NCBI GenBank assembly: GCA_046292385.1
Contig: JBKBRF010000004.1
Coordinates: forward strand, 224,001 to 288,000
From: Armatimonadota bacterium
GTDB taxonomy: Bacteria; Armatimonadota; SYMT01
Reading direction: 5' to 3'
DNA length: 64,000 nucleotides
Shown one piece after another: positions 5,119 through 28,129 of this stretch (within the stretch, counting starts at the first letter, position 1; the number at the start of each line of letters is the position of its first letter). The notes under the pieces were generated by a model. That model made no database searches. It saw only the letters and a list, made by a program, of their open reading frames with translations, and was not told the DNA's origin. The position numbers and the translations under genes were made by a program.

Positions 5119-5273
5119 CCTGCCGGCCAATCATTTTCTCGGAAGGGACATTGGGGCCACGCGAACGAACCTTCGCCTGAGTGACTACCGCCCGGCCGCC
5201 GTGGGAGCGAGCTCCCGCCCGGATGCCGTTCCGCGGGGCGCTCGCGTCGTTCGTCTTCAGGAAGGAGCCCCCC

Positions 5274-6254
5274 GTGTCCGACTTCGACAGCCGACTTTCC
5301 GCCCTCGAGACCGCTCATCGGAGAACGGTGCGAACCCTTGTCATCTGGCGCTGCGCCGCACTCTCGGCCGCGGTCTTCACCCTGGGCGCGCCGGCCCTCC
5401 AGGCGTGGCAGGGCGATAGCCCGGAGGCCCCGGCCCGCAGCTCGCTCGCTCGACGGGTCCGGCTGCTGGAGGAGCAGTTGCAGGAGCAGCAGGAGCTGAT
5501 CTCCGGCTTGCAGACGGCGCTGGCAGGAGAGACGACGCACCGGGAGCTCGCGGATGCAGCCCTCCGCGGGGATCTGGAAGCGGAGGCGGCGGCTCGCGAG
5601 GGCGGCGATGCCGCGCTCCAGGCCGGTCTCACCCCCGTTCAGCAGAAGCTCGCGAGAGTGGTGGTCCGCAACGGAGGCGACGATCTCTACCTCATCGGGG
5701 CGAACCTGCACGTGGTGAACGGCCTCGAATCGACCGATTCGACGAACGGTCTCGGCAACCTGATCGTCGGATACAACGAGCTCCGCGGAAACGGCGCCGA
5801 CCACCGAAGCGGGTCCCACAACCTGGTGGTGGGACGCTTCAATAACTACCTGAAGTACGGCGGCCTGGTGGCTGGCGAGACGAACGAAGTAAGCGGCGCG
5901 TTCGCCTCGGTGGCCGGCGGGCACGGCGGCGTCGCCAGTGGCGATTGGGCCGCGGTGACCGGCGGGCATGGGAACACCGCCTCCGGCCTGGAATCGACGG
6001 TGACGGGCGGGTGGGCCAATCTCGCGTTCGGTGCCGCGGCCGCCGTAACCGGTGGGGATCACAACGTCGCCTCGGGGAACCTTGCGGTGGTCACCGGCGG
6101 CGCGCAGAACCAGGCGATGGTGGGCGGCGCGGTGGTCTCGGGCGGCCAGGGGAATGAGGCGAGAGGTGTGCTTTCCGTGGTGGGCGGCGGATGGCGGCGA
6201 GCCGCCCCGGGGGATCTCGACTGGGTTGCCGGAGGTCTCTTCCAGGACTTCTAA
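5274..6254 (+). CDS. Hypothetical exported/anchored protein with a coiled coil and Gly-rich 14-aa beta-roll-like repeats
   Basis: AAGGAG RBS before GTG 5274; hydrophobic segment near the N-terminus; heptad-rich region; repeated N-x-A-S-G-x-x-A-x-V-x-G-G units. Confidence 0.8.
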   Translation: MSDFDSRLSALETAHRRTVRTLVIWRCAALSAAVFTLGAPALQAWQGDSPEAPARSSLARRVRLLEEQLQEQQELISGLQTALAGETTHRELADAALRGDLEAEAAAREGGDAALQAGLTPVQQKLARVVVRNGGDDLYLIGANLHVVNGLESTDSTNGLGNLIVGYNELRGNGADHRSGSHNLVVGRFNNYLKYGGLVAGETNEVSGAFASVAGGHGGVASGDWAAVTGGHGNTASGLESTVTGGWANLAFGAAAAVTGGDHNVASGNLAVVTGGAQNQAMVGGAVVSGGQGNEARGVLSVVGGGWRRAAPGDLDWVAGGLFQDF

Positions 6255-7483: not shown

Positions 7484-8041
7484 TTACGAGGCCGAGCTCG
7501 TGGTTGCCGAGATGCTCTGCCGCGCCTGGGCGTAGTAGCGGTCGCCACTGCCTCCGTTCCCGTGGCTCTTGCCGTTTCCGTTCGCACCGTTCACGTGCGC
7601 GCCGCTGCCGGCCGCCGGCCGCCGCGGCAGCAGCTTGACGAGGCGGACGCGAGTGCCGTCGCCGTCCGGCGTGAAGGCGACTTCGTCCATCAGCTCCCGC
7701 ATCAGGAAGAGGCCCCGTCCGGAGGGCTTGTACTCCTCGAACTGCGGCAGCGCGATCTCGCGCGGGCGGAACCCGCCGCCCTGGTCGAAGATCTCGAAGA
7801 CGATTTGGTTCTCGTCCAGCTCGCAGCGCAGCCGCACCCGGTTCTCCGGTCCCAGCGGGGAGCCGTGACAGATGGCATTGCTCGCCGCCTCGGAGATCGC
7901 GACCTTCAATCCTTCCAGGTCATCTCCCGAAAGGCGGGCACTATGGATGAATCGGCTGACTAACTCCCGGATATCGTGAACCACCCAGGTCTCCGCCGGA
8001 TACTCCAGCTCCAGCACGCGCTTTCGGGTGTTGGTGGACAT
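7484..8041 (-). CDS. RsbW/SpoIIAB-like anti-sigma factor or Ser/Thr kinase (HATPase_c)
   Basis: Motifs VAISEAASNAICHG, IFDQGGGF and GRGLFLMRELMDEV; AAAGGAG RBS. Confidence 0.88.
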   Translation of the reverse strand: MSTNTRKRVLELEYPAETWVVHDIRELVSRFIHSARLSGDDLEGLKVAISEAASNAICHGSPLGPENRVRLRCELDENQIVFEIFDQGGGFRPREIALPQFEEYKPSGRGLFLMRELMDEVAFTPDGDGTRVRLVKLLPRRPAAGSGAHVNGANGNGKSHGNGGSGDRYYAQARQSISATTSSAS

Positions 8042-8355: not shown

Positions 8356-9723
8356 CTATCCGTCGTTGTTACCCCCGAACGTAGCGAGGAGCCGGCGCAT
8401 CCGGAGCGTGCGGCGGGCGATCACCCGCTTTACGATGGCGCGCAGGCTGCGGGTGTGCTCTTCCGGCAGGTAGTGGAGCGGGATCATCGAGACGATCAAC
8501 AGCACCGCCATCACCAGGAAGAAGATGCGGAAGCGGTCGATCTCCAGGAGGCCCCACTGCACGTTCACTCCCCGCAGCACCTGGAGCAAGTAGCCGGAGG
8601 CGAGGGTCGCGGCGCCGCTGCCGAGTCCGGTGAGCGTGACGCTCAGGGCCACGTAGTGGGCACGGTGGAGCACCGGGATGAATCCCAACTCGAACTTCGA
8701 CATCGAGACGGTAAGCCCGCCGGTGAAGATGCCGATCAGCAGGGAGATGAGGGGCACGCCGAGCCACAGCCAGACGGCGGAGGTGTCGGTAAGGAGCCAG
8801 AGCGCCAGGCTCCCCGCGATTCCGGCGATGACGAGTCCGAGCACCGGACGCGCGCCGATGCGGTCGGTCCAGCGGCCCCAGGCTACCAGGGTGGCGATGG
8901 CGCCGAGGCTGCCGATCGTGTTGATCGCGATGACGCCCGAGGCGCTGATGTTCAGGCCGTCTCGGAGGAAGACGACGAGGAACGGCGGTACGGCACTGAG
9001 CGCCATGCGCAGGAGCACGGAGAAGAGCAGGAAGCGGCGAAAGATGGCGTCCCGCAGCGGCGCGGTGGCGCGGCTCAGATACTCGCGGTCGAGCGGCTCC
9101 GCCATGGAGCCGACGTCCGGCACGCGCGCCAGGTAGACCAGGCTCCAGGCGGCGGCCACCACCCCGAGGCCGATCACGTGCAGGAAGCGGGTCATGCCCT
9201 CCGTATCGATCAGGTAGAGCGCGGTGATGACGTTGATCAACACGATGCTCGCCTGGCGCAGCCACTCCTGGCGGCTCAGGTAGATCCCGCGGTCGTGGGG
9301 GCGCACGATCTCCTGCACCAGCGGCAGCCAGGAGCTCATCCCGAGGGCGCGGCAGATGTAGAAGCCGAGCATCACCACCAGCAGGAGCTGCGTGCCGGCG
9401 GCGGGGCCGCCCCGGGCCATGGCGACCGGGACCAGGAAGAGCCCGGCGGAGACGAAGGTGCGCGCGCCCCAGCCCGCCAGCATCACCCGGCGGGGGCCGA
9501 AGCGGTTGACGAGCGGCGCCACCACGAGCTGGATTACCGCCGCGAAGGGAAGGAGCGCGGAGAGCAGGCCGATGTCGCCCAGCGACGCCCCCGCCTGGCG
9601 CGCGAACAGGATCAGGATCTGTCCGGCCAGCACTTCGAACGACAGGGCGTTCAGGGCCGTGAAGCGCAGCAGGTTGAGCTTGGCGTGCTCGCGCTCCAGC
9701 TCGTCCAGGTCGTCGCCGTGCAT
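8356..9723 (-). CDS. MFS transporter
   Basis: About 12 TM segments; loop motifs VNRFGPRR and WTDRIGAR. Confidence 0.85.
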   Translation of the reverse strand: MHGDDLDELEREHAKLNLLRFTALNALSFEVLAGQILILFARQAGASLGDIGLLSALLPFAAVIQLVVAPLVNRFGPRRVMLAGWGARTFVSAGLFLVPVAMARGGPAAGTQLLLVVMLGFYICRALGMSSWLPLVQEIVRPHDRGIYLSRQEWLRQASIVLINVITALYLIDTEGMTRFLHVIGLGVVAAAWSLVYLARVPDVGSMAEPLDREYLSRATAPLRDAIFRRFLLFSVLLRMALSAVPPFLVVFLRDGLNISASGVIAINTIGSLGAIATLVAWGRWTDRIGARPVLGLVIAGIAGSLALWLLTDTSAVWLWLGVPLISLLIGIFTGGLTVSMSKFELGFIPVLHRAHYVALSVTLTGLGSGAATLASGYLLQVLRGVNVQWGLLEIDRFRIFFLVMAVLLIVSMIPLHYLPEEHTRSLRAIVKRVIARRTLRMRRLLATFGGNNDG

Positions 9724-9801
9724 CTACTCTCCCCCGGCGAAGAGTATCACCGGCAGGCGCTCCGGAACCCCGGCCCGCCGCGAACTGCGGCGCCGGGGCC
9801 G

Positions 9802-9810
9802 TGGTAAGAT
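9802..9810 (+). promoter_or_regulatory. Putative extended -10 promoter for the DUF169 / radical SAM genes
   Basis: TGG-TAAGAT about 47 nt upstream of ATG 9857. Confidence 0.4.
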
Positions 9811-9856
9811 GATCTGAGCCCGGCTCCCCGACCGGGTCGTCGACCGAGGAACCTTC

Positions 9857-10540
9857 ATGCCGTCACCGATTCAGGAGCTGCTGGGGCTCAAGTTTCCCCC
9901 TGTCGCCGTCTCGTTCCGACCGGAGGCACCCGCCGGGATCGAGCGGGTGGACCAGCCGGCCTGCGCGGGCTGCTCGTACTGGCGGCTCGCAGCGGAAGGG
10001 AGGGTCTTCTACACCGAAGCCCCGGACCACTACGGCTGTCCGGTCGGCGCGCACACCCACGGCATCCCGCTCCCGCCGCAGCAGGCAGAGGAGCTGGCGG
10101 AGCTGGCCCGGATCATGACCGGCCTGGAGTACGTGACGGAAGCGGAGGTCCAGGCGATGCCGTCGCGCTCCCAGCCGTTCGGCGTGGCGGTCTACGCACC
10201 GCTCGACCGCGCAACCGAGACCCCGGACCTGCTCCTCGTCCGCGGCACCGCGCGCCAGATCATGCTGCTCACCGAGGCGGCACAGGCCGCCGGGGTGGCG
10301 CCGGAGCGCCCCGCGCTCGGCCGTCCGGCTTGCGTCCTCGTCCCGCTCACGCTGGACGGCAGCACCACGGCCACCAGCCTCGGCTGCATCGGCAACCGGG
10401 TCTACACCGGGCTGCAGGACGACGAGCTCTATTTCGCGCTCCCCGGCAGCGCCATCGACGCGGTAACGGAGCGACTGCCGCGCATCGTCGGCGCCAACCA
10501 GGAGCTGGAGAAGTTCCACCGGGCCCGGCAGGGAGCCTGA
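9857..10540 (+). CDS. DUF169-family protein
   Basis: Motifs LGLKFPPVAV, CAGC, HYGCPVG, PDLLLV, PAC and SLGCIGNRVYTGL..DELYFALP match the DUF169 pattern; GAGGA RBS. Confidence 0.85.
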   Translation: MPSPIQELLGLKFPPVAVSFRPEAPAGIERVDQPACAGCSYWRLAAEGRVFYTEAPDHYGCPVGAHTHGIPLPPQQAEELAELARIMTGLEYVTEAEVQAMPSRSQPFGVAVYAPLDRATETPDLLLVRGTARQIMLLTEAAQAAGVAPERPALGRPACVLVPLTLDGSTTATSLGCIGNRVYTGLQDDELYFALPGSAIDAVTERLPRIVGANQELEKFHRARQGA

Positions 10541-10542
10541 TA

Positions 10543-10631
10543 AAGGCTAAAGGCAGAAGGCTAAAGGCAAAAGGTCCGAACCCTTCGTGTACGGGAGGTC
10601 CTGCTCCTGCTCTTACTCTTGCTCCTGCTCG
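10543..10631. repeat. AAGGC(T/A)(A/G) heptamer array, CCGAACCCTTCG spacer and TGCTCC-like hexamer array
   Basis: Read directly; the same composite recurs at 27826-27940. Confidence 0.65.
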
Positions 10632-10822
10632 CTGGCGACCCGCGATAGTCCGGCGCGTCCGCGTGAACTCGCACTACAAACGGTATCTACAGGCAAAAGG
10701 ATGAACGCTGAACCCCCGACTTCCGGCTGCACTCCCGGCGGTGTCCGGCGTCCGGTAGGAGCCCGGGACGGAGGCTGCTCAGCGCGGACGCCTATTCCCT
10801 CGCGCCGTTGGGAGTGTGCGTC

Positions 10823-12295
10823 TTGACCGGAAGTCAGCAGCCGAGCTTGCGGGCGGCGGGGGGGGTGCTGCTGGTCTCGTTGTATGAGCTGGGCCACCAG
10901 CCGGCGGGGCTCGCCTTTCCCCTGGCGGCGCTGGAGCAAGCCGGGTTCTCGCCGCGAGCGCTCGATCTCTCCGTGGAGGAGCTCGACCCGGAAGCGGTGC
11001 GCGGCGCCGGGTTGATTGCCGTCTCGGTGCCGATGCATACCGCGATGCGGATCGGCGCGGCGGTCGCCGGGCGGATCCGGGCGCTCAACCCGGGAGCGCA
11101 CCTCTGCTTCTACGGACTCTATGCGGTGCTGAATGCCGGCCACCTCCTGGCGACCGCCGACTCGGTGCTCGGCGGCGAGATCGAGCCGGCGCTGGTGACG
11201 CTCGCGGAGGCGTTGGAGCAGGGGGAGCGGGGGCCGATCGAGGGCGTCACGTTTCGTGAGAAGTGGCAGGCAGCCGGCGCCACCGGCACCGCGCCCGCCG
11301 TGCTGCGCCGCGTGGAGCTGCCGGTGCCGAGCCGGGACCACCTGCCGCCCCTGGAGCGGTACGCCCGGCTCGACTACCGGGGCGAGCTGCGGCTGGCGGG
11401 GTACACGGAGGCGACCCGCGGCTGCAAGCACCACTGCCGCCACTGCCCGATCCCGCCGGTCTACGGCGGCCGCTTCTTCGCGGTGCCGGCGGAGACGGTG
11501 CTGGGAGACATACGCCGGCAGGTGACCGCGGGCGCGCGCCACGTCACCTTTGGCGACCCGGACTTCCTGAACGGCCCCACCCACGCGCTCCGGATCGCGC
11601 GAGCGCTCCACGCGGCGCATCCGGAGGTGACGTTCGACTTCACCGCCAAGGTGGAGCACCTCCTGGCACAGGAGACGCTGCTGCCGGAGCTCGCCTCGCT
11701 CGGCTGCCTCTTCATCGTCTCGGCGGTCGAGTCGGTCTCCGAGGATGTGCTGGCGCGGCTGCGGAAGCGCCACACCCGCGCCGACGTGGCCCGGGCCGCG
11801 GCCGCAGCGCGCCGGGCCGGAATCGCGCTGCGGCCGTCGCTGATGCCGTTCACCCCCTGGGCCGGGCTGGACGACTACCTCGACCTGCTCCGGTTCAGCG
11901 TGGAGCACGAGCTGGTCGACTCGCTCGACCCGGTGCAATTCAGCATCCGGCTGCTCGTGCCGCCTGGCTCGCTGCTGCTGGAAGGCGGCGACATGGACCC
12001 GTATCTGGGACCGCTCGACGCCGCGGCATTCAGCTACACGTGGACGCACCCCGACCCGCGGATGGACGCGCTCCACCAGGAAGTGGCGGCCCGGGTGGAG
12101 CGCGCCGCGCAGGCCGGAGAGCCCCCGCGGGAGACGTTCCGCGCTATCTGGTCCGCCGCGCACCGGGCTGCCGGCCTCCCTGACGTCGATCCGAAGCTGC
12201 CGCCGGAGCCGGACGTGAAGCCGCCGCGGCTGACGGAGGCCTGGTTCTGCTGAGCAGAGCCGACCGCGGGCCAGTTGGCCCGCTCTGCGGCGTAA
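10823..12295 (+). CDS. B12-binding-domain radical SAM protein with C-U-A-E-P tail; predicted selenoprotein (UGA 12251-12253 = Sec)
   Basis: CxxxCxxC motif (GCKHHCRHC) and N-terminal cobalamin-binding-like domain. The ORF-track stop after WFC is TGA, followed in frame by AEPTAGQLARSAA and TAA at 12293-12295, matching the CUAEP/CCAEP-tail radical SAM family. Start TTG 10823 after GGAG (alternative 10808). Confidence 0.88.
12254..12288 (+). promoter_or_regulatory. Bacterial SECIS-like hairpin after the UGA of the radical SAM gene
   Basis: Upper stem GCGGGCC (12266-72), loop AGTT, GGCCCGC (12277-83); lower stem GCAGA/TCTGC; loop begins 20 nt after the UGA. Confidence 0.75.
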
Positions 12296-12390
12296 GATGC
12301 GCCCCGCGCATCCGTCCGGCGCCACCCTTACGCTGCCAGGGTGCGCGCCTGCGTTTCGCCCTGCCAGGCCCACCGCGTCGGTGAACCTCG

Positions 12391-14028
12391 TCAATTCGGC
12401 TTCTGCTCGTTCGGTTTCAGGTCCTCGCGAACTCCCGACTCGACGCTTGACGGTTCACCGTCGGCGGAGATGTGGAAGACGTGGCGAACGAATGCCGGCG
12501 TCTTTTCCACGAAGATCCGTACCCGCAGTCGATCCAGTGGAAGCTGATTGGCCAGCCCCGCCAGGCGGCTCGGATCCTCGGCGGCCAGTGCTCCCCGCGC
12601 TCGCGCGTTCGTTCGTGCTACCGAGATTCCGGCCGCAGACCCCGCCTGGCGAAGCTCGGCCGCGCTGAGAGCGTCACGCCAGGCCAGGAACGCCCGGCGT
12701 GCACGGGCGCCGGCGAGCACGACGGGGAACTCCGCGTCAATCAATTGTGCCTGAAGATCGTTCAGACGGGACATTTCCAACAACTCGTCCCAGCCCAGAT
12801 GCCCGTCCCGAGTCCGCACTTCGCGCCAGCGTCGGTGTTGCGTAGCGGGGACTTCACCCAGATCATCGAACGCGAAGCGCCGGTTACGCCAGCGGAGGAC
12901 CAGTCGATCATCATCCACGGCGCACCGATACGCACTCTGCTCCGCGAGCTCAAGCAGTAGGTCTTTCAGAGTCGCAGCGGAAGCCGGGGAGAGCGGCGGG
13001 ACAGGCTTGCGGTGGTAGTAATCGGATGTGAGCGAGCGCCCCAGGACGCGGGCGAGGGAGATCTGGACATCCGCGAGCTCTCGCCAGGAGGGGCGTTCCT
13101 TCTGTAGTTGGCCAGACTGTGCTTCCGTCAGCGTGCCCAGCGCCTCAAGGTTCCCGGATATGGGGTCCTCGGCCGGCTCGCTGAAGCCGAGGGCGGCGAA
13201 TGGGCCACCATTGGAGAAATTCACCCGATTAATGGTGATGCTCGTACCCAGGCGCCACTTGCCCAACGCAGGCTCCAGACGCAGAAACACTCCAATCTCC
13301 GCACTGTCGAGCGCCCCTCGCACTCCATCGCCTCCGAAACGACTAACAAGCAGGGTTTCGAATTGCTGCTTGGCTGGCTCGCTCCATTGAGCCCATGGAC
13401 CCTTCAACTCACCTCCACGAGCCAGATGGTCGAGTTGCTGTGGCGGGAATGTGCCGAGAAGTTGCCCGAGCGGGCGACCCTGCGCCTCCCATTGCTGCGG
13501 AGTCCGGAAGTAAAAGTCAAGCTGTTCGTCCCCCGTGGGTTGTGGGGCTTCGTTCGGATGTGCGCGCGCAAGTCGTATCAAGCGATCCATCCCCGCGCGA
13601 ATACGTGCCGTATCTCGCTCGACCAGCCGCGCGAACTCGTTTCTGGCACGCGGATCCTGCCAGAGCAGGAACTCCGCTTCCCTCGGACGATCCCGCCTCC
13701 ATCTCACGGGGAAGTCGCGCCGGCTCCAAAGCTGCTCCAGGTCGAGCATCGCTTCCCGGGCGGGCCGCTCCTTCCAGAGCACGGTCACATACAGGTCCCG
13801 CAGGTGCTCAACCGCGCCGAATCGCTTGCCGGTAACCTCGGATAGCTTCGCGAGCACCTCGTCCAGCGGGAGTGCCTTGCCCTCCAGGTTGATCTTGGCC
13901 GCCGGCCACTCGCGGGGCACAGAGCCAGCATTACGAGCTTGCTTTGTGCTGGAATCGGCAAGTCCGGCCCCGGTGACAAGGCAGATCAACGCCAGGCAAC
14001 CTGCCGTGAACGCTCGGATATCGAACAT
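12391..14028 (-). CDS. Hypothetical exported protein with an STN-like N-terminal domain
   Basis: Signal-peptide-like N-terminus; INLEGKALPLDEVLAKLSEVTG resembles a secretin/TonB short N-terminal domain; GAGGAGG RBS; atypical codon usage. Confidence 0.7.
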   Translation of the reverse strand: MFDIRAFTAGCLALICLVTGAGLADSSTKQARNAGSVPREWPAAKINLEGKALPLDEVLAKLSEVTGKRFGAVEHLRDLYVTVLWKERPAREAMLDLEQLWSRRDFPVRWRRDRPREAEFLLWQDPRARNEFARLVERDTARIRAGMDRLIRLARAHPNEAPQPTGDEQLDFYFRTPQQWEAQGRPLGQLLGTFPPQQLDHLARGGELKGPWAQWSEPAKQQFETLLVSRFGGDGVRGALDSAEIGVFLRLEPALGKWRLGTSITINRVNFSNGGPFAALGFSEPAEDPISGNLEALGTLTEAQSGQLQKERPSWRELADVQISLARVLGRSLTSDYYHRKPVPPLSPASAATLKDLLLELAEQSAYRCAVDDDRLVLRWRNRRFAFDDLGEVPATQHRRWREVRTRDGHLGWDELLEMSRLNDLQAQLIDAEFPVVLAGARARRAFLAWRDALSAAELRQAGSAAGISVARTNARARGALAAEDPSRLAGLANQLPLDRLRVRIFVEKTPAFVRHVFHISADGEPSSVESGVREDLKPNEQKPN

Positions 14029-14113
14029 GCTGCCTCCTCGTCGGGTTCTGCGGGTCCGAAGAAGCGGCGCTACCGCGCCAGCGTCTTCGGACCCGTGCGT
14101 GCTGATCCGCGGG

Positions 14114-14650
14114 TTACGGATTGATAATGCTGAAGTTCACCGAATCGCGGACGTAGACCGGCATGTCAGGAGAGGTGAAATCCTGACACCATATCTCCAT
14201 CGACGTGTGCGAGGTATGTCCCCCCGCAGATACCGAGCGGTTTCCGGAGAGCTGGGTGGATGAGACCGTAAAGTAGTCAACTACTCCGCCTTGCAGCACG
14301 TAGGGCGTGGGAGGGAATCCGGTTGTACCCAGTGCATCCACCATGTTCGAAGTGTTGTCGACATACAGCCGCGCCAACACATCCCAGTAGGTGTCTGTCC
14401 ACCAGTTGCCATCGGACAGCACGCCCCCACTGATTGTACCTGCGAAAGCAATATTCATGGACGACGCTCCGCCCGTATGAAATGGATCACCACCTGCGGC
14501 GGGGGTATCGTTTGTGGCGTCTACCGTAATGTAGAAGCCGTTGATGCCCTTGCTGTTGTTCGCAGCTTGGACCGGCGAAACGAGCAGGAGCGTGCCGACC
14601 AGGATGCCCAAGTAGCCAAATGTCCGTAGCATCTTCATCAATCTCCCCAT
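14114..14650 (-). CDS. Hypothetical secreted beta-rich protein
   Basis: Signal peptide ending VQA-A; Ser/Thr/Gly/Asn-rich mature part; AT-richer DNA; start uncertain (14650 or 14671). Confidence 0.7.
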   Translation of the reverse strand: MGRLMKMLRTFGYLGILVGTLLLVSPVQAANNSKGINGFYITVDATNDTPAAGGDPFHTGGASSMNIAFAGTISGGVLSDGNWWTDTYWDVLARLYVDNTSNMVDALGTTGFPPTPYVLQGGVVDYFTVSSTQLSGNRSVSAGGHTSHTSMEIWCQDFTSPDMPVYVRDSVNFSIINP

Positions 14651-14888
14651 AAGAAGCTCTCCAGAATTCAAATTCGCGCTGGAGACACAAACAAGTTAGC
14701 TCCCCCCCCCATATTCCTCTTCTCTCCCGAAAGAATCTTGTCGCACTCATTTGGAGAGCATGGACATGTGAACTCCGGATAGACTCGGAGACACTGTGTC
14801 GTCCGTGCTTGTCGATTCCTACCGGGTGGGAAAGAATAGGGGAGAGAACCCCTTCGGCCGGGTCCCTGGTCGAGGACAGGAGAGAGTT

Positions 14889-15551
14889 ATGGTAGGAGAA
14901 GAGCAGCGCGACGCGGCCGCCGCGGCGCCGGATGCGAGCGACGAGATCCTGAAGATCAGCGAGGTGGCGGCCACCAAGATCCTGGACGTGATGCGCTCCC
15001 AGGACCCGCCGGTCTTCACGCTGCGGGTCTCCTCCCCGGCGCGCGGCAAGTACGCGATGAACCTGGAGCCGGAAGGCACCCCGGCGGCGGACGACACGAC
15101 GCTGGAGTACGACGGCTTTCAGGTCTACGTCGATTCCGACAGCCTGGAAGCGGTGCGGGGCGCCAGCCTCGACTTCGTGATGACGCCGACCGGCGGCGGC
15201 TTCCAGTTCACCAACCCGAACGACGCCCCGCGCGGTGGCGCTCCGCAGCGCAAGGAAGCCCCGGAAGGACCGGAAGGCGACGTCTGGCGCCAGATCCAGC
15301 AGGTGCTGGAAGCCGAGGTGAACCCGGCGGTCGCCTCCCACGGCGGGCGGATCGACCTGATCGAATACAAAGAAGGGATCGCCTACGTCCAGATGAGCGG
15401 CGGCTGCCAGGGCTGCGGCATGGCGGCGATGACCCTGAAGCAGGGCGTGGAGCAGATCCTGCGCTCGCACGTGCCGGAGATCGACGAGATCCTCGACGTG
15501 ACCGACCACGCCGGCGGCCGCAACCCGTACTACGCTTCGTCCACCAAGTAA
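14889..15551 (+). CDS. nfuA: NfuA-type Fe-S carrier (degenerate HesB/A-type domain plus NifU C-terminal domain)
   Basis: N-terminal domain VYVDSDS..GASLDF..GGFQFTNPN lacks Cys; C-terminal VNPAVASHGG and MSGGCQGC..TLKQGVE; VTDH. Confidence 0.88.
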   Translation: MVGEEQRDAAAAAPDASDEILKISEVAATKILDVMRSQDPPVFTLRVSSPARGKYAMNLEPEGTPAADDTTLEYDGFQVYVDSDSLEAVRGASLDFVMTPTGGGFQFTNPNDAPRGGAPQRKEAPEGPEGDVWRQIQQVLEAEVNPAVASHGGRIDLIEYKEGIAYVQMSGGCQGCGMAAMTLKQGVEQILRSHVPEIDEILDVTDHAGGRNPYYASSTK

Positions 15552-15557
15552 AGCGCG

Positions 15558-16808
15558 ATGCCCCGGCTGCTGCTGCTCGTCCCGAACACCTCTTACCGCG
15601 CGGAGGAGTTTGGGACGGCGGCGCGCCGGCTCGGGATCGAGGTCAGCGTCGCTTCCGAGCGCGCCAGCAGCCTGGCCGGGCAGCGGCCCGCCGACCTCCT
15701 GGCGCTCGACTTCGCCCGGCCGGAAGTCGCGGTCCGGCAGGCCCGGCGCTTCCACTCCCGCTATCCGGTCGACGCGGTCCTCGGCGTAGACGATGCCACG
15801 GTCGAGGCGGCGGCCCACGTCGCGGCGGCGCTCGGCCTGCCGCACAACCCGCCGGAGGCGGTGGCCCGCGCCCGCAGCAAGCTCCGCACCCGGGAGGCGC
15901 TCCGCGAGGCGGGGACGCCGGTGCCCTGGTTCCGCTGCTACTCCCGAGGGGCCCAGCCGGACGGTTTCGCGGAGGAGGTGCCGTATCCGTGCGTGCTGAA
16001 GCCGCTCGGGCTCTCCGGCGGCCAGGGCGTGATCCGCGCCGATGACCCGCGGGAGCTCGCCGCCGCCTTCGAGCGGGTGGGGCGGATCCTCGACCGCGCC
16101 GCGCCGCAGGGGGCGGAGGCCGGATCGATCCTGATCGAGAGCTTCATCCCGGGACGGGAGGTCGCGCTCGACGGGCTCCTCACCGCTGGCGAGCTTCAGG
16201 TGCTCTGCCTCTGGGATAAGCCCGACCCGTTAGACGGTCCTTACTTCGAGGAGACGATCTACGTCACGCCGTCGCGTCTACCCGAGGCCGCGACGGCGGA
16301 GATCGTGAGCCGGGTCCGAGAGGCGGCGCGGGTCCTCGGGCTGCGAGAGGGGCCGGTCCACGCGGAGCTGCGGGTCAACGACGAAGGGGCCTGGCTGCTG
16401 GAGCTGAACCCGCGCTCGATCGGCGGCAAGTGCAGCCGTGCCCTGCGGTTTGGGGCAGGGCTCTCCCTGGAGGAGCTGATCCTGCGGCACGCGCTGCGGA
16501 TGGAGATCCCGAGCCTGGAGCGGGAGCGGGCTGCCGCGGGGGTGATGATGCTGCCGATTCCCCGGGCCGGCGTGCTGGAAGAGGTCCGCGGGGAAGACGA
16601 GGCGCTGGCGGTGTTCGGCATCCGGGAGCTGATCCTTTCCGCGCACCCCGGGCAGGAGCTGGTGCCGCTGCCGGAGGGCTCCGCCTACCTCGGCTTCCTC
16701 TTCGCGCGCGGCGCTTCGCCGACAGCCGTGGAGACTGCCCTGCGCGAGGCCCACTCGCGCCTGGAAGTGGTGGTGCGGCCGGTCGCCGAAGCAGGTCAGC
16801 CGCGTTGA
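15558..16808 (+). CDS. ATP-grasp domain protein (carboxylate-amine ligase-like)
   Basis: Motifs YPCVLKPLGLSGGQGV, ESFIPGREV, GPVHAELRV and LELNPRSIGG. Confidence 0.88.
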   Translation: MPRLLLLVPNTSYRAEEFGTAARRLGIEVSVASERASSLAGQRPADLLALDFARPEVAVRQARRFHSRYPVDAVLGVDDATVEAAAHVAAALGLPHNPPEAVARARSKLRTREALREAGTPVPWFRCYSRGAQPDGFAEEVPYPCVLKPLGLSGGQGVIRADDPRELAAAFERVGRILDRAAPQGAEAGSILIESFIPGREVALDGLLTAGELQVLCLWDKPDPLDGPYFEETIYVTPSRLPEAATAEIVSRVREAARVLGLREGPVHAELRVNDEGAWLLELNPRSIGGKCSRALRFGAGLSLEELILRHALRMEIPSLERERAAAGVMMLPIPRAGVLEEVRGEDEALAVFGIRELILSAHPGQELVPLPEGSAYLGFLFARGASPTAVETALREAHSRLEVVVRPVAEAGQPR

Positions 16809-16834
16809 CCGGTTGAACGGTCGCTCAGTATAAT
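16805..16834 (+). promoter_or_regulatory. Putative sigma70 promoter for the sugar-binding protein gene
   Basis: TTGACC (16805-10), 18 nt spacer, TATAAT (16829-34). Confidence 0.55.
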
Positions 16835-16899
16835 CGCTCGCACCTCTGACGGTTTTGCTTGCGCGAGACGCCGGATGGACGGCGTCTCGGAGGAACCCC

Positions 16900-17952
16900 A
16901 TGCGTCGTTCTCTCTCCCTCGCCGCGCTGCTCTTCGCGGGCGCACTCACTCTCTCCGCCTGCACCCCGCCGGAACAGTCCGGGAGCGGCGGTGCGAATGC
17001 CACTGGCGCTGCGGCCAACGGCTCCGGGTCGTCCGAAACGATCACGCTTGGCATGATGCCGAAGCAGAAGGGCATCGACTACTTCAACGCCTGCGAGCAG
17101 GGCGCCCAGGAAGCCGCCAGGGATCTGGGCGACGTGAACCTGGAGTACGACGGCCCGGTGCGCGACGAGTCCGAGCTGCAGAGCCAGAAGCTCGACACCT
17201 GGATCACCCGGAACCTCGACGCGGTGGCGGTCGCCTGCAACGACCCGAACCAGATCTCCACCTCCCTGGCGCGCGCCCGCGACAAGGGGATGACCGCGAT
17301 CACCTGGGATGCCGATGCCAACCCGGAGCAGTCGAAGCGGCAGTTCTTCGTGAACCAGGTCGACTCCCTGGCGCTCTCCCACGCGCTGGTCGACCAGATG
17401 GCGGAGCAGGCGGGTGAAGACGCGCAGGTGGCGGTGGTCAGCTCCTCTCCCACGGCGCCGAACCAGTCGGCGTGGCTGAAGGAGATGGAGACCTACATGA
17501 AGTCGAAGTACCCGCAGATGAAGGTGGTCGACACCAAGTACGCGGGTGAGAACCAGGTGAAGTCGGAAGAAGAGGCCGGCAACCTGCTGAAGGCCTACCC
17601 GGAGCTCGACGGCATCTGGGGCATGACCTCCGTGGCGTTCCCCGGGGCCGCCAGCGCGGTGAAGAAGGCGGGCAAGTCCGGCCAGGTGGCGGTGATCGGC
17701 CTCGGCACGCCGAAGGCGATGAGCGGGTTCGTAAAGGATGGCGTGGTGAAGACCGTCACGCTCTGGAACCCGGTCGACCTCGGCTACCTGACCGTGCACG
17801 TGGCGCGCGCGGTCGCGAAGGGAGAGCTGAAGCCGGGCGCCACCAGCTTCACGGCGGGTCGGCTGGGCGAGGTGAAGGTCGACGGCGACATGGTGCTCCT
17901 CGGCAAGCCGATGGTCTTTGACGCCAAGACCATCGACGACTACCAGTTCTGA
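16900..17952 (+). CDS. Sugar ABC transporter substrate-binding lipoprotein (RhaS/LsrB-like)
   Basis: Lipobox LSAC; motifs MPKQKGIDYF, ITWDAD, SSSPTAPNQ..W and LWNPVDLGY. Confidence 0.88.
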   Translation: MRRSLSLAALLFAGALTLSACTPPEQSGSGGANATGAAANGSGSSETITLGMMPKQKGIDYFNACEQGAQEAARDLGDVNLEYDGPVRDESELQSQKLDTWITRNLDAVAVACNDPNQISTSLARARDKGMTAITWDADANPEQSKRQFFVNQVDSLALSHALVDQMAEQAGEDAQVAVVSSSPTAPNQSAWLKEMETYMKSKYPQMKVVDTKYAGENQVKSEEEAGNLLKAYPELDGIWGMTSVAFPGAASAVKKAGKSGQVAVIGLGTPKAMSGFVKDGVVKTVTLWNPVDLGYLTVHVARAVAKGELKPGATSFTAGRLGEVKVDGDMVLLGKPMVFDAKTIDDYQF

Positions 17953-18875: not shown

Positions 18876-19085
18876 CTACTTCCGGTCCTTATACTCCTCC
18901 AGCCAGGCCATCTGGATCGCCTCCAGCTTGCCTTCGTTGGAGGCCTTCGGATCGTCGCCGAAGCTCTCCAGCTCGGTGACCCAGCGGTGCAGGTCGGTGA
19001 AGCGGACCGTGAGGGGATCGGTGTCGGGGTACTTCTCCGCCAGCTCGATGCCGAGATCTTCCGCGTCGTTCCAGCTCAGCTTCAT
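18876..19085 (-). CDS. iscX: Fe-S cluster assembly protein IscX
   Basis: MKLSWNDAEDLGIELAEKYPDTDPLTVRFTDLHRWV..DDPKASNEGKLEAIQMAW; C-terminal 69 aa of ORF 18876..19817; start overlaps the upstream stop. Confidence 0.95.
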   Translation of the reverse strand: MKLSWNDAEDLGIELAEKYPDTDPLTVRFTDLHRWVTELESFGDDPKASNEGKLEAIQMAWLEEYKDRK

Positions 19086-23492: not shown

Positions 23493-24101
23493 CTATCCAG
23501 CTCCCACCGCGGCGTTCAGGCTGTTCAACACGCGGCGGAGGTAGGCGCGGTCGGCGAGCACCGTGCGGATCTCGCCGAGCACGCGTGCGCGTTCCGGAGC
23601 GTCGCCCGAGTCGGAGAGCGCGTCCCATCGACGGAACAGCTCGCCGGTGAGGCGCTCCACCCGGCTATCCAGCTCCGCCTGCAGCCGGTCGCGCTTCTCC
23701 CGCAGCGCCGCGGCCAGCGACTCTCGCTCTTCGGGGTCGGCGAAGCGGTGCTCGCCCAGGAGCTCCTGCACCTCCAGGATCTCGTCGAACAGCTCCTGCG
23801 GGGGCGCGTCCTTCGCCGGCTCTCCCGTGCTCTCTTCCAGCGTCAGCAGGTAGGCGGCGCGCTCGAACGGGTCCCGCAGCGTGCGGTAGGCCTGGTTCAC
23901 CTTGGAGGAGCTCTCCAGCGCCCCGATCCGCTCGCGCGCGGTGGCCGCGCGATAGAGGTCTGGATGGTAGCGGCGGGAGAGCTCGTGGTAGACCGGCTCC
24001 AGCGCCTTCGGGTCGAGCGTCAGCTTCCGCGGCAGTCCCAGCACCGCGAAGTAGTCCGCGTCACGCGGCAGCGGCTCGGCTCGAGTCGGCTCGTCAGGCA
24101 T
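23493..24101 (-). CDS. hscB: Fe-S assembly co-chaperone HscB (J-domain)
   Basis: Motifs DYFAVLGL, YHPD and VNQAYRTLRDPFERAAYLL. Confidence 0.93.
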   Translation of the reverse strand: MPDEPTRAEPLPRDADYFAVLGLPRKLTLDPKALEPVYHELSRRYHPDLYRAATARERIGALESSSKVNQAYRTLRDPFERAAYLLTLEESTGEPAKDAPPQELFDEILEVQELLGEHRFADPEERESLAAALREKRDRLQAELDSRVERLTGELFRRWDALSDSGDAPERARVLGEIRTVLADRAYLRRVLNSLNAAVGAG

Positions 24102-24834
24102 CGGTCAATCTCTCACTCCGGCGCTCCACCCGGAAGCCGCACTCCGCGAGCATCCGGGCCGCCGGCACTATCTCGTAGCCGTCGGCGCGCAGCTCCTCGA
24201 TTAGCGCGGGCAGCGCCTCGGCCGTCCCGGAGTGTGCCGCCTGGCCGCCGTGCAGCACGATCACCGCTCCGGGATGCACTTCCGAGAGCACTCGCCGCCG
24301 CAGCTCCTCCGGCGTCAGCGGGTTCCAGTCCCCGGGCACCACGCTCCAGTAGACCGGCGTCAATCCCTCGGCGGCGAGCGCGGCGCGCGCCCCGAGCCCC
24401 ACCGCTCCGAACGGCGGCCGGAAGAGGCGCGGCGAGCCGGGACAGACCCGGGAGAGCAGCGCCTCGGTGCGCGTCAGCTCTCGCCGCGGGGAAGCGCAGG
24501 TCCCATAGCCGAGCGGGAGGTGGCTCCAGGTGTGGTTGCCGACCTCGTGACCTTCCGCATGGATCCGGCGCAGGAGCGTCTCTTCCGCCGCGGCGCGGCG
24601 GCCTTCCACGAAGAACGTGGCGGTCGCGCCCGCCGCGCGCAGCGCCTGGAGCAGCCGCGGGGTGATCTCCGGGTCCGGACCGTCGTCGATTGTCAGGGTC
24701 ACCCAGCGGCGAGAGGGCGGGCCCTCCCACAGGCCGGCCGGGTACCAGCGGCGGCCAAGCTGCGCGAGGGCGCGCGGCACCCCACCGCGGGGCTTCCGTT
24801 CCGCTCGCTCTACCGGCGTCACGATGGCGCGCAT
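24094..24834 (-). CDS. Polysaccharide deacetylase (NodB/CE4)
   Basis: Motifs LTIDDGP, ATFF, GNHTWSH, FRPPFG, DW and IVLH; overlaps the hscB start. Confidence 0.9.
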   Translation of the reverse strand: MRAIVTPVERAERKPRGGVPRALAQLGRRWYPAGLWEGPPSRRWVTLTIDDGPDPEITPRLLQALRAAGATATFFVEGRRAAAEETLLRRIHAEGHEVGNHTWSHLPLGYGTCASPRRELTRTEALLSRVCPGSPRLFRPPFGAVGLGARAALAAEGLTPVYWSVVPGDWNPLTPEELRRRVLSEVHPGAVIVLHGGQAAHSGTAEALPALIEELRADGYEIVPAARMLAECGFRVERRSERLTDA

Positions 24835-27825: not shown

Positions 27826-28129
27826 AAAGGCAAAAGGCTGAAGGCAAAAGGCCGAGAGTGAAGGCAAAAGGTTCACCCCCCGAACGGGGGGCAAAAGGCT
27901 GAAGGCTAAAGCCGAACCCTTCGAGCTCGGCTGCTCCTACTGCTGACAGGGATGTCAGCGCTTCGGGAAGCGTGCCGACCCGGCGGGGCGGAATTTGGAG
28001 TGCGGTAGCTTGCTACCGCTTTGAGGAGCGTGGCGCCCTGGCGCATTCCCGTGGGCGAACGGGAGCTCTCGTAGGGATGGCGGTGTGAAGGCGGGACAGG
28101 CTGGGCAGGCGGGACAGGCTGGGCAGGCG
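27826..28129. repeat. Composite repeat-rich spacer
   Basis: AAGGC(A/T)(A/G) heptamer arrays plus CCGAACCCTTCG; hairpins GCTGACA-GGGA-TGTCAGC (27942-59) and GCGGTAGC-TT-GCTACCGC (28002-19); 18-bp tandem AGGCGGGACAGGCTGGGC x2 (28089-28124). Confidence 0.65.

Follow-up and report, generated by a model that had tools for sequence, protein, structure and literature searches.

A conserved gene cassette built around a predicted cysteine-selenocysteine-tailed radical SAM enzyme, present in rearranged form in an Armatimonadota genome

Do genes for a radical S-adenosylmethionine (SAM) enzyme with a cysteine-selenocysteine tail, an iron-sulfur (Fe-S) carrier and an ATP-grasp ligase belong together when they are found side by side? 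This question is raised by a 64,000-nucleotide stretch of an Armatimonadota genome (GenBank assembly GCA_046292385.1, contig JBKBRF010000004.1, positions 224,001 to 288,000), referred to here as the window, in which genes for a DUF169 protein, a radical SAM protein, an NfuA-type carrier and an ATP-grasp ligase lie on one strand. A first-pass annotation made from the sequence alone had read these four genes as a single selenium-dependent pathway whose product is exported by a neighbouring transporter of the major facilitator superfamily (MFS). The open reading frame (ORF) listing and family scans confirmed its description of the four same-strand genes and their positions, the gap of 6 nt between the nfuA stop and the ATP-grasp start, the repeat-bearing spacer, the divergent MFS gene and the opposite-strand gene pair of atypical composition (G+C content of 0.55 to 0.64, versus 0.70 to 0.75 in the flanks). 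As judged from sequence comparisons with other genomes, the window carries a conserved cassette, here in rearranged form, that consists of a radical SAM gene of family NF040546, an ATP-grasp ligase gene and one or two genes for iron or Fe-S helper proteins.

The radical SAM protein belongs to a family that is already known and has been named by NCBI as NF040546, the CUAEP/CCAEP-tail radical SAM (seleno)proteins. The match reaches 689.8 bits (cut-off, 500; E = 1.6e-207; 683.3 bits in the genome search) and places residues 20 to 491 on model positions 1 to 467 of 468; it thus covers the full length of the family, including the C-U-A-E-P tail, with no family-level difference. An N-terminal B12-binding-like domain is followed by the radical SAM core (PF04055, 53.8 bits), whose CxxxCxxC motif, formed by C206, C210 and C213, is invariant in 23 sequences, and by a C-terminal tail. 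Model confidence is lower in this tail (predicted local distance difference test [pLDDT] values of 76, 77, 62 and 59 for the last four 10-residue blocks), and the stretch is probably flexible or mobile. Translation is taken to start at the TTG at 10808, with an alternative TTG at 10847 giving a 468-amino-acid form up to the in-frame TGA. When this TGA is read as selenocysteine (Sec), the protein ends in EAWFC-U-AEPTAGQLARSAA and is closed by the TAA at 12294 to 12296.

Several lines of evidence bear on how this codon is read. In 80 related loci drawn from a species-level genome collection, the column of U482 holds TGA in 49 and Cys in 25 and is unreadable, at a contig edge, in 6; the C-U/C-A-E-P motif was found in 74 loci, the remaining 6 being cut by contig ends, and the peptide AEPTxGQ continues in frame past the TGA across the related loci. 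A hairpin of the Sec insertion sequence (SECIS) type, with an AGUU-type loop, follows at a fixed distance, its stem beginning ~13 to 16 nt past the UGA. Among 48 Sec-form sequences (47 loci and the window), 82.1% of cells are paired, compared with 71.1% in shuffles, a level that none of 500 shuffles reached; double-change cells number 53, compared with 20.6 in shuffles, and the named register outscores all six slid registers. The hairpin is absent in all 25 Cys forms, and the mean folding energy of the 55 nt past the codon is -17.9 kcal/mol for Sec forms versus -12.2 kcal/mol for Cys forms. An Rfam scan of positions 9500 to 17200 returned no curated SECIS family and a single chance match to an internal ribosome entry site (E = 0.45). 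The genome encodes Sec machinery with scores above the family cut-offs, namely, selA (577.9 bits), selB (367.5 bits), selD (362.3 bits) and tRNA-Sec (66.6 bits). Because the family match spans the tail, the hairpin covaries, orthologs carry Cys at the same column and the Sec machinery is complete, we read the TGA as a Sec codon and the tail as a true Cys-Sec tail, in line with the first-pass annotation. Its wider description of the cluster as selenium dependent is valid for the enzyme alone, and 25 of the 74 resolved homologs carry Cys.

In the same genome, tRNA-Sec, selD and selA are contiguous (C11:87438-90122), and the selD match holds one in-frame TGA, so that SelD itself may be a selenoprotein. 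A second Fe-S cluster held by C29, C100, C300 and the tail was considered and dropped: the window protein has Leu at position 29, conservation of C100 is below 90% in a wider alignment, and of the four candidates only C300 and the tail remain conserved. The search for homologs of the radical SAM protein gave at least 8000 scored candidates, all with E values of 1e-20 or lower, a set in which other B12-type radical SAM families may also be represented.

With tblastn, relatives of the window ATP-grasp ligase were found in 36 of the 80 loci (orthologs with 47 to 60% identity), relatives of the Nfu domain were found in 23 and relatives of DUF169 were found in 20, the last of these no more than 3 kb away from the radical SAM gene; de novo clustering of ORFs likewise gave the ligase, Nfu and DUF169 families as the top true neighbours. 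Three further neighbours recur. In 10 Chloroflexota loci, a gene for YggX (Iron_traffic, PF04362) lies immediately upstream of the radical SAM gene, with a divergent formyltransferase-like gene beside it (L036, L058, L060, L061, L063, L077, L090, L091, L095 and L099; fmt model score of 119.5 bits, cut-off of 201.5), and in 7 Methylomirabilota loci, a gene for a CDGSH iron-sulfur protein is divergent. When only those 41 loci were counted whose flanks reach 3 kb or more on either side, a ligase gene was present within 3 kb in 21, a helper gene (Nfu, DUF169, YggX or CDGSH) was present in 29 and both were present in 20. The order of the genes varies: typically, it is radical SAM, DUF169, ligase in Nitrospirota; radical SAM, Nfu, ligase in Methylomirabilota; ligase, radical SAM, Nfu in Acidobacteriota; and radical SAM, Nfu, DUF169, ligase in two loci (L053 and L041) that contain all four families. 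By these gene-neighbourhood data, the linkage is conserved over at least six phyla. The expectation of the first-pass annotation that the four families would form a conserved set was thus borne out, as they are co-inherited in many phyla and the gene-neighbourhood comparison found them linked.

Two side observations concern these loci. At two places (L106 and L107), the formyltransferase-like gene also travels with YggX and the ligase at a separate genome site. In 11 Nitrospirota loci (L023, at 5167 to 5751, and 10 others), a conserved protein of ~144 amino acids without a Pfam or NCBIfam match is encoded convergently just past the ligase gene; two small conserved ORFs, c18 and c29, were rejected as antisense shadows of this gene.

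The association extends to whole genomes. Among 121 genomes of the order of G196, a Nitrospira sp. (locus L033), 24 have both the radical SAM gene and the ligase gene, 2 have the radical SAM gene only, none has the ligase gene only and 95 have neither. Among 151 genomes of the phylum of G043 (Gemmatimonadetes; locus L078), the corresponding numbers are 11, 0, 14 and 126, and a further 8 genomes have a distant paralog alone (E values of 1e-32 to 1e-43). In the window's own phylum, represented by 41 genomes, the two genes occur together solely in G000 and G016; the latter is the 1 of 40 relatives with the radical SAM gene, and it also has the sole strong ligase ortholog (57% identity), located behind a full-length NfuA gene. 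The sampled genomes are kin, and the counts overstate independence. A clear pattern emerges nonetheless: genomes with the radical SAM gene nearly always have the ligase gene as well, and in one phylum the Nfu-ligase pair can stand alone. These data also bear on the possibility that the four window genes are functionally unrelated and adjacent by accident. That the set is broken by two unrelated genes and a 267-nt spacer, and that NfuA is a housekeeping gene of the lineage, would fit such an accident; the conservation of the linkage over at least six phyla, the near-perfect co-occurrence in two large samples and the restriction of the ligase ortholog, among 40 relatives, to the one with the radical SAM gene do not. 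This explanation is already contradicted by the comparative data, and we regard it as extremely improbable.

The stand-alone pair raises another alternative, namely, that the Nfu-ligase pair is primary, making, for example, a methionine- or homocysteine-type or thiol dipeptide linked to Fe-S or sulfur metabolism, and that the radical SAM enzyme is an add-on which makes use of the pair or is served by it. The ligase-bearing Gemmatimonadota genomes speak for it: 14 of the 25 are without the radical SAM gene, and the reverse is found in none. Of the 10 Gemmatimonadota loci examined, 6 come from radical-SAM-negative genomes; in every one of the 10, an nfu gene lies immediately upstream of the ligase gene, and in 5 of them, metE, encoding a cobalamin-independent methionine synthase of 773 amino acids, lies directly upstream of nfu. 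The ligase also keeps its company where the radical SAM gene lies elsewhere, as nonadjacent ligase orthologs sit beside Nfu or beside YggX and the formyltransferase-like gene. Set against this, none of the 95 radical-SAM-negative Nitrospirales genomes has the ligase, the ligase of the window's own phylum is confined to genomes with the radical SAM gene, the Gemmatimonadota genomes are kin and their counts are not independent, and the metE linkage is limited to one phylum, being absent from the window and from all 80 loci. We consider a primary role of the pair, with the radical SAM enzyme as an add-on, decidedly unlikely. Because ligase-only Gemmatimonadota genomes have metE beside nfu, the pair may still have its own role in methionine or sulfur metabolism, into which the radical SAM enzyme plugs.

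The loci with the order metE, nfu, ligase (L104, L105, L114, L116 and L121) include radical-SAM-positive and -negative genomes. A 301-amino-acid protein without a family is encoded behind the ligase in 8 of the 10 Gemmatimonadota loci.

The window ligase itself, the product of 15558 to 16808, is by its domains an L-amino-acid-ligase-type enzyme. ATPgrasp_N (50.8 bits), ATP-grasp_4 (114.8 bits) and LAL_C2 (57.9 bits) each score above the gathering score, and this three-domain ATP-grasp architecture is the same as that of the L-amino acid ligases BL00235, BacD and RizA. The window-type ligase differs from these enzymes in being tied to Nfu or YggX genes; we know of no such neighbourhood for a characterized L-amino acid ligase. 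No curated NCBIfam ligase family was matched at its cut-off. The best solved relative is BL00235 (PDB 3VOT; E = 4.2e-42 over residues 21 to 406), which forms Met-Gly and Met-Met according to table 2 of PMC6920838.

Besides the ligase, the cassette has a slot that is filled by any of four unrelated iron or Fe-S families, Nfu, YggX, CDGSH and DUF169, and this interchangeability suggests that the helper serves to keep the [4Fe-4S] cluster filled or in its reduced state in hosts that are mostly aerobic. Pairs of a small iron or Fe-S carrier with a radical SAM enzyme have precedents. NfuA serves the cluster-consuming radical SAM enzymes LipA and MiaB; the cassette differs from such systems in that its putative helper may be any of the four families. 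A further precedent is Dph3, which is described in PMC8251694 as giving iron under air to Dph1-Dph2, an enzyme that uses a 3-amino-3-carboxypropyl (ACP) radical. The NfuA-type protein of the window combines a degenerate A-type domain (PF01521, 34.5 bits) with an Nfu domain bearing a CQGC motif (PF01106, 83.2 bits), and its gene contains an internal ATG at 14889. Since both domains are present and the NfuA equivalog TIGR03341 is missed (117.6 bits; cut-off, 269.35), "NfuA-type" is used here as a name for the architecture alone.

The DUF169 protein aligns with PF02596 over model positions 2 to 208 of 209 (gathering score, 27 bits), and in 15 cassette-linked homologs, the residues C39, C61, C159 and C177 as well as D57 and H58 are invariant. 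Its AlphaFold2 model is of high confidence (pLDDT, 92.5), and no solved relative was found: the best Foldseek match in the PDB had an E value of 0.053 and a TM score of ~0.2, the highest Z found by VIA-align among 48,161 chains was 4.9, and a sequence search of the PDB returned nothing below an E value of 0.14. From its conserved cysteines and its place in the cassette, DUF169 is a candidate Fe-S or redox helper. As a lead only, one Atlas cluster contains a natural fusion of DUF169 to a 4Fe-4S ferredoxin domain.

A variant in Planctomycetota (L037, L046, L074 and L079) has other partners. Here, the genes run on one strand in the order radical SAM, DUF169 (not in every case), a protein of 162 to 166 amino acids, a DapDC-like pyridoxal-phosphate-dependent decarboxylase and an FGE-sulfatase-like protein, the partner genes lying ~0.2 to 4 kb downstream of the radical SAM gene. 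The decarboxylase scores 199 to 205 bits with the lysA model, below the cut-off of 298. In G041, the genome of L037 and the only one with this variant that was searched, no ligase was found. Since the ligase and the DapDC-like decarboxylase both act on alpha-amino acids, an amino acid product fits both forms of the cassette, and by this analogy the cassette probably makes an amino-acid-derived compound.

What the radical SAM enzyme might contribute is suggested by its likeness to ArsL, which forms the C-As bond of arsinothricin and is its one relative with studied chemistry. The ArsL model, NF040542, is the second-best family for the window protein, with 300.6 bits over model positions 1 to 413 of 423, which leaves out just the Cys tail peculiar to ArsL, and the next family scores 50.6 bits. 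The two proteins share their architecture, a homologous core, a CxxxCxxC motif at the same place and a conserved Cys-bearing C-terminal tail. In two reports (10.1101/2024.02.01.577332 and 10.64898/2026.04.29.721666), ArsL is described as cleaving SAM to yield an ACP radical and as holding As(III), for attachment of the ACP group, by the three Cys residues of a C-terminal CCxxC motif; the latter report describes ArsL as so far the sole canonical-fold radical SAM enzyme known for the ACP radical. From this likeness we infer a working model, which we hold tentatively and with doubt weighing slightly heavier than belief. The radical SAM protein would cleave SAM at the gamma-carbon, as ArsL does, and the resulting ACP radical would join a soft atom, either a metalloid or a chalcogen, held by the Cys481-Sec482 tail, possibly together with Cys300. 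The product would be a methionine-shaped amino acid, which the ligase would couple to a second amino acid, and Nfu, YggX, CDGSH or DUF169 would deliver or restore the [4Fe-4S] cluster, which is oxygen sensitive, in the mostly aerobic hosts.

A number of observations weigh against this ArsL-like model. The window protein misses the ArsL cut-off of 450 bits, and its WFCUAEP tail, with one Cys and one Sec (WFC-U/C-AEP in the family), offers two chalcogen ligands where the RCCLKC/CCxxC motif of ArsL offers three. Sec also occurs more typically as a catalyst of redox reactions than as a simple ligand. Unlike ArsL, whose ars operon context includes arsM and arsQ, the family has an amino acid ligase and Fe-S helpers as partners, and no ars gene or methyltransferase was present among the annotated recurrent neighbour families or the scanned window genes. 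In 11 of the 41 loci with full flanks, the 3 kb to either side of the radical SAM gene hold neither a ligase nor a helper gene; of 5 such genomes tested, 4 have a ligase ortholog elsewhere (48 to 56% identity). The radical SAM gene occurs without the ligase in two Nitrospirales genomes and in G041, and since it was not found in more than half of the ligase-bearing Gemmatimonadota genomes, the ligase cannot depend solely on its product. In the window, moreover, the cassette genes are split over at least two transcription units, which qualifies the first-pass proposal of one pathway of four genes. Finally, the preprint of Haft (10.1101/2022.07.06.499078) lists the NF040546 family as uncharacterized, our literature searches on CUAEP-tail radical SAM selenoproteins found no functional study of the family, and the main text of a 2026 selenoproteome review (PMC13188914) makes no mention of NF040546, CUAEP or CCAEP.

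A serious rival reading assigns the tail a redox or hydrogen-donor function. The enzyme would then perform canonical 5'-deoxyadenosyl radical chemistry, the Cys-Sec tail would hold no substrate and act as a redox shuttle or H-atom donor by forming a selenenylsulfide, in the manner of the GCUG tail in thioredoxin reductase or the pair of C-terminal Cys residues in ribonucleotide reductase, and the ligase would act at a separate step. Mammalian thioredoxin reductase has a vicinal Cys-Sec pair in its C-terminal GCUG, likewise on a mobile arm; it differs from the window protein in fold and enzyme class, and the window tail, on a radical SAM enzyme, has 13 residues past the Sec. The exchange of Sec and Cys at one position, seen in the 74 resolved loci, is the usual pattern for redox-active selenoproteins, the lower model confidence of the tail is consistent with a mobile arm, the tail has one chalcogen ligand fewer than that of ArsL and the nearest solved structures, AprD4, OxsB and TsrM, are those of enzymes without ACP chemistry. 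This reading is opposed by the closeness of ArsL in sequence over the whole core, by the ligase and decarboxylase partners, which indicate an amino acid product, and by the annotated neighbour families, among which no thioredoxin or reductase gene recurs. On balance, we judge a purely redox-active tail to be unlikely.

If the ArsL-like model is carried to its full extent, the cassette in at least six phyla would forge a C-Se, C-As, C-Sb or C-S bond by means of an ACP radical on a Cys-Sec arm, giving a methionine-like amino acid not known before that would be built into a dipeptide or, in Planctomycetota, decarboxylated, and DUF169 would represent a novel type of Fe-S helper or electron donor able to take the place of Nfu. 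We put this forward as a speculation that, taken as a whole, has a low probability.

How the window came to have its present layout can be read in part from its relatives. None of the six genomes of the same family has the radical SAM gene, the ligase gene or a close DUF169 gene, and all six have orthologs of NfuA (53 to 62% identity) and of the sugar-binding protein, the two adjoining on one contig in G004 (50 to 646 and 1175 to 2239). The window NfuA is nearer to these orthologs than to the cassette-linked NfuA proteins of G016 (44%) and L034 (40%). Because the NfuA/sugar-binding-protein pair is kept in the relatives and adjacent in G004, NfuA is the resident housekeeping gene of the lineage, which fills the Nfu position of the cassette, and the ligase gene lies exactly between NfuA and its old neighbour. 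The inclusion of NfuA in the cluster by the first-pass annotation is thus upheld as regards the Nfu-ligase linkage, with the qualifications that the gene is here a resident one and that the pair occurs alone in Gemmatimonadota.

The same comparison separates other genes from the cassette. The left flank is syntenic in G005 through the MFS gene, where the synteny ends; an MFS ortholog is present in three of the six same-family genomes, all without the cassette, and relatives of the MFS protein, of either opposite-strand protein or of the sugar-binding protein were not found in any of the 80 loci. A role of the MFS protein as exporter of the pathway is therefore not supported. The larger opposite-strand protein has distant homologs (28 to 33% identity) in four of the six same-family genomes, and neither protein of the pair matched a Pfam or NCBIfam family in our scans; to judge from these comparisons, the opposite-strand pair, like the MFS gene, is part of the lineage's own gene content and lies outside the cassette. 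A 435-nt soil-metagenome contig matches positions 11944 to 12295 with 8 differences and, after 28 other letters, resumes at 14824, which hints weakly at a close relative in which nfuA follows the radical SAM gene directly and the opposite-strand pair is missing. In FastTree trees, DUF169 groups with L053, the ligase groups with L053 and Nitrospirota and the radical SAM protein groups with L096 and Chloroflexota; as over-long ORF starts seemed to have inflated the branch lengths, no conclusion on a donor lineage was drawn. The positions of the genes and other features are collected in Table 1.

Table 1. Positions of the cassette genes, their signals and neighbouring features in the window
Feature	Position	Strand	Basis or remark
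MFS transporter gene	8356-9723	minus	ORF listing and family scan; divergent from DUF169 gene
DUF169 protein, 227 aa	9857-10540	plus	PF02596, 91.2 bits
Intergenic spacer with short tandem repeats, 267 nt	10541-10807		between DUF169 and radical SAM genes
Predicted CUAEP-tail radical SAM selenoprotein, 495 aa	10808-12296 (ORF 10808-12250 up to TGA)	plus	NF040546
In-frame TGA, read as selenocysteine U482	12251-12253	plus	
SECIS hairpin GCGGGCC-AGUU-GGCCCGC	12266-12284	plus	RNA fold; inside tail-coding sequence
Two opposite-strand genes, 545 and 185 aa	12391-14028, 14114-14671	minus	no family match
NfuA-type Fe-S carrier gene	14796-15551	plus	PF01521 and PF01106
L-amino-acid-ligase-type ATP-grasp protein, 416 aa	15558-16808	plus	ATPgrasp_N, ATP-grasp_4, LAL_C2
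Sugar-binding-protein gene	16855-17952	plus	
isc operon, iscS to iscX	27275 down to 18876	minus	

The remaining features of the region concern its intergenic signals and flanks. The only strong site in a promoter and terminator scan, a sigma-70-like site at 16805 to 16834 with 11 of 12 matches, precedes the sugar-binding-protein gene. The spacer between the DUF169 and radical SAM genes contains TAAAGGC repeated 4.9 times (10541 to 10574) and TCCTGC repeated 5.3 times (10599 to 10630), and an AAAGGC-type repeat is also found in an intergenic region at 27826 to 27907, with 5 matches to a 14-mer compared with 0.08 expected. Since the depth of soil-metagenome contigs is very high over the spacer bin (10457 to 10807), the AAAGGC-type repeat is probably a multicopy or widespread element. 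By eye, the N termini of both opposite-strand proteins are hydrophobic and signal-peptide-like. Upstream of the MFS gene, a gene for an anti-sigma-factor-type kinase of the HATPase_c_2 family (7484 to 8041, minus strand) is syntenic in a same-family relative. The first-pass annotation had placed the start of the isc operon about 2 kb downstream of the cluster; the distance is right, but the operon is on the minus strand and it is its 3' end, iscX at 18876, that lies nearest the ATP-grasp gene. This operon contains extra genes: one for a polysaccharide-deacetylase-like protein between hscB and iscA (24094 to 24834) and, between fdx and iscX, genes for an EamA-type transporter and an FNR-like flavin reductase.

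In summary, what this analysis adds to the named radical SAM family are the co-occurrence counts, the stand-alone Nfu-ligase pair, the helper slot filled by four families, the decarboxylase variant and the local history, by which the MFS gene and the inserted gene pair fall outside the cassette and NfuA is resident. The conserved ligase and the interchangeable Nfu, YggX, CDGSH and DUF169 helpers provide an experimental handle on the cassette and place DUF169 in a functional setting for the first time. The NF040546 family, sister to ArsL and far larger, is spread over phyla of soil, groundwater and marine habitats. If the ArsL-like chemistry holds true, an organo-element amino acid not described so far, along with the peptide made from it, would be widespread in nature, and the Sec tail would be a rare case of selenium presenting a substrate.

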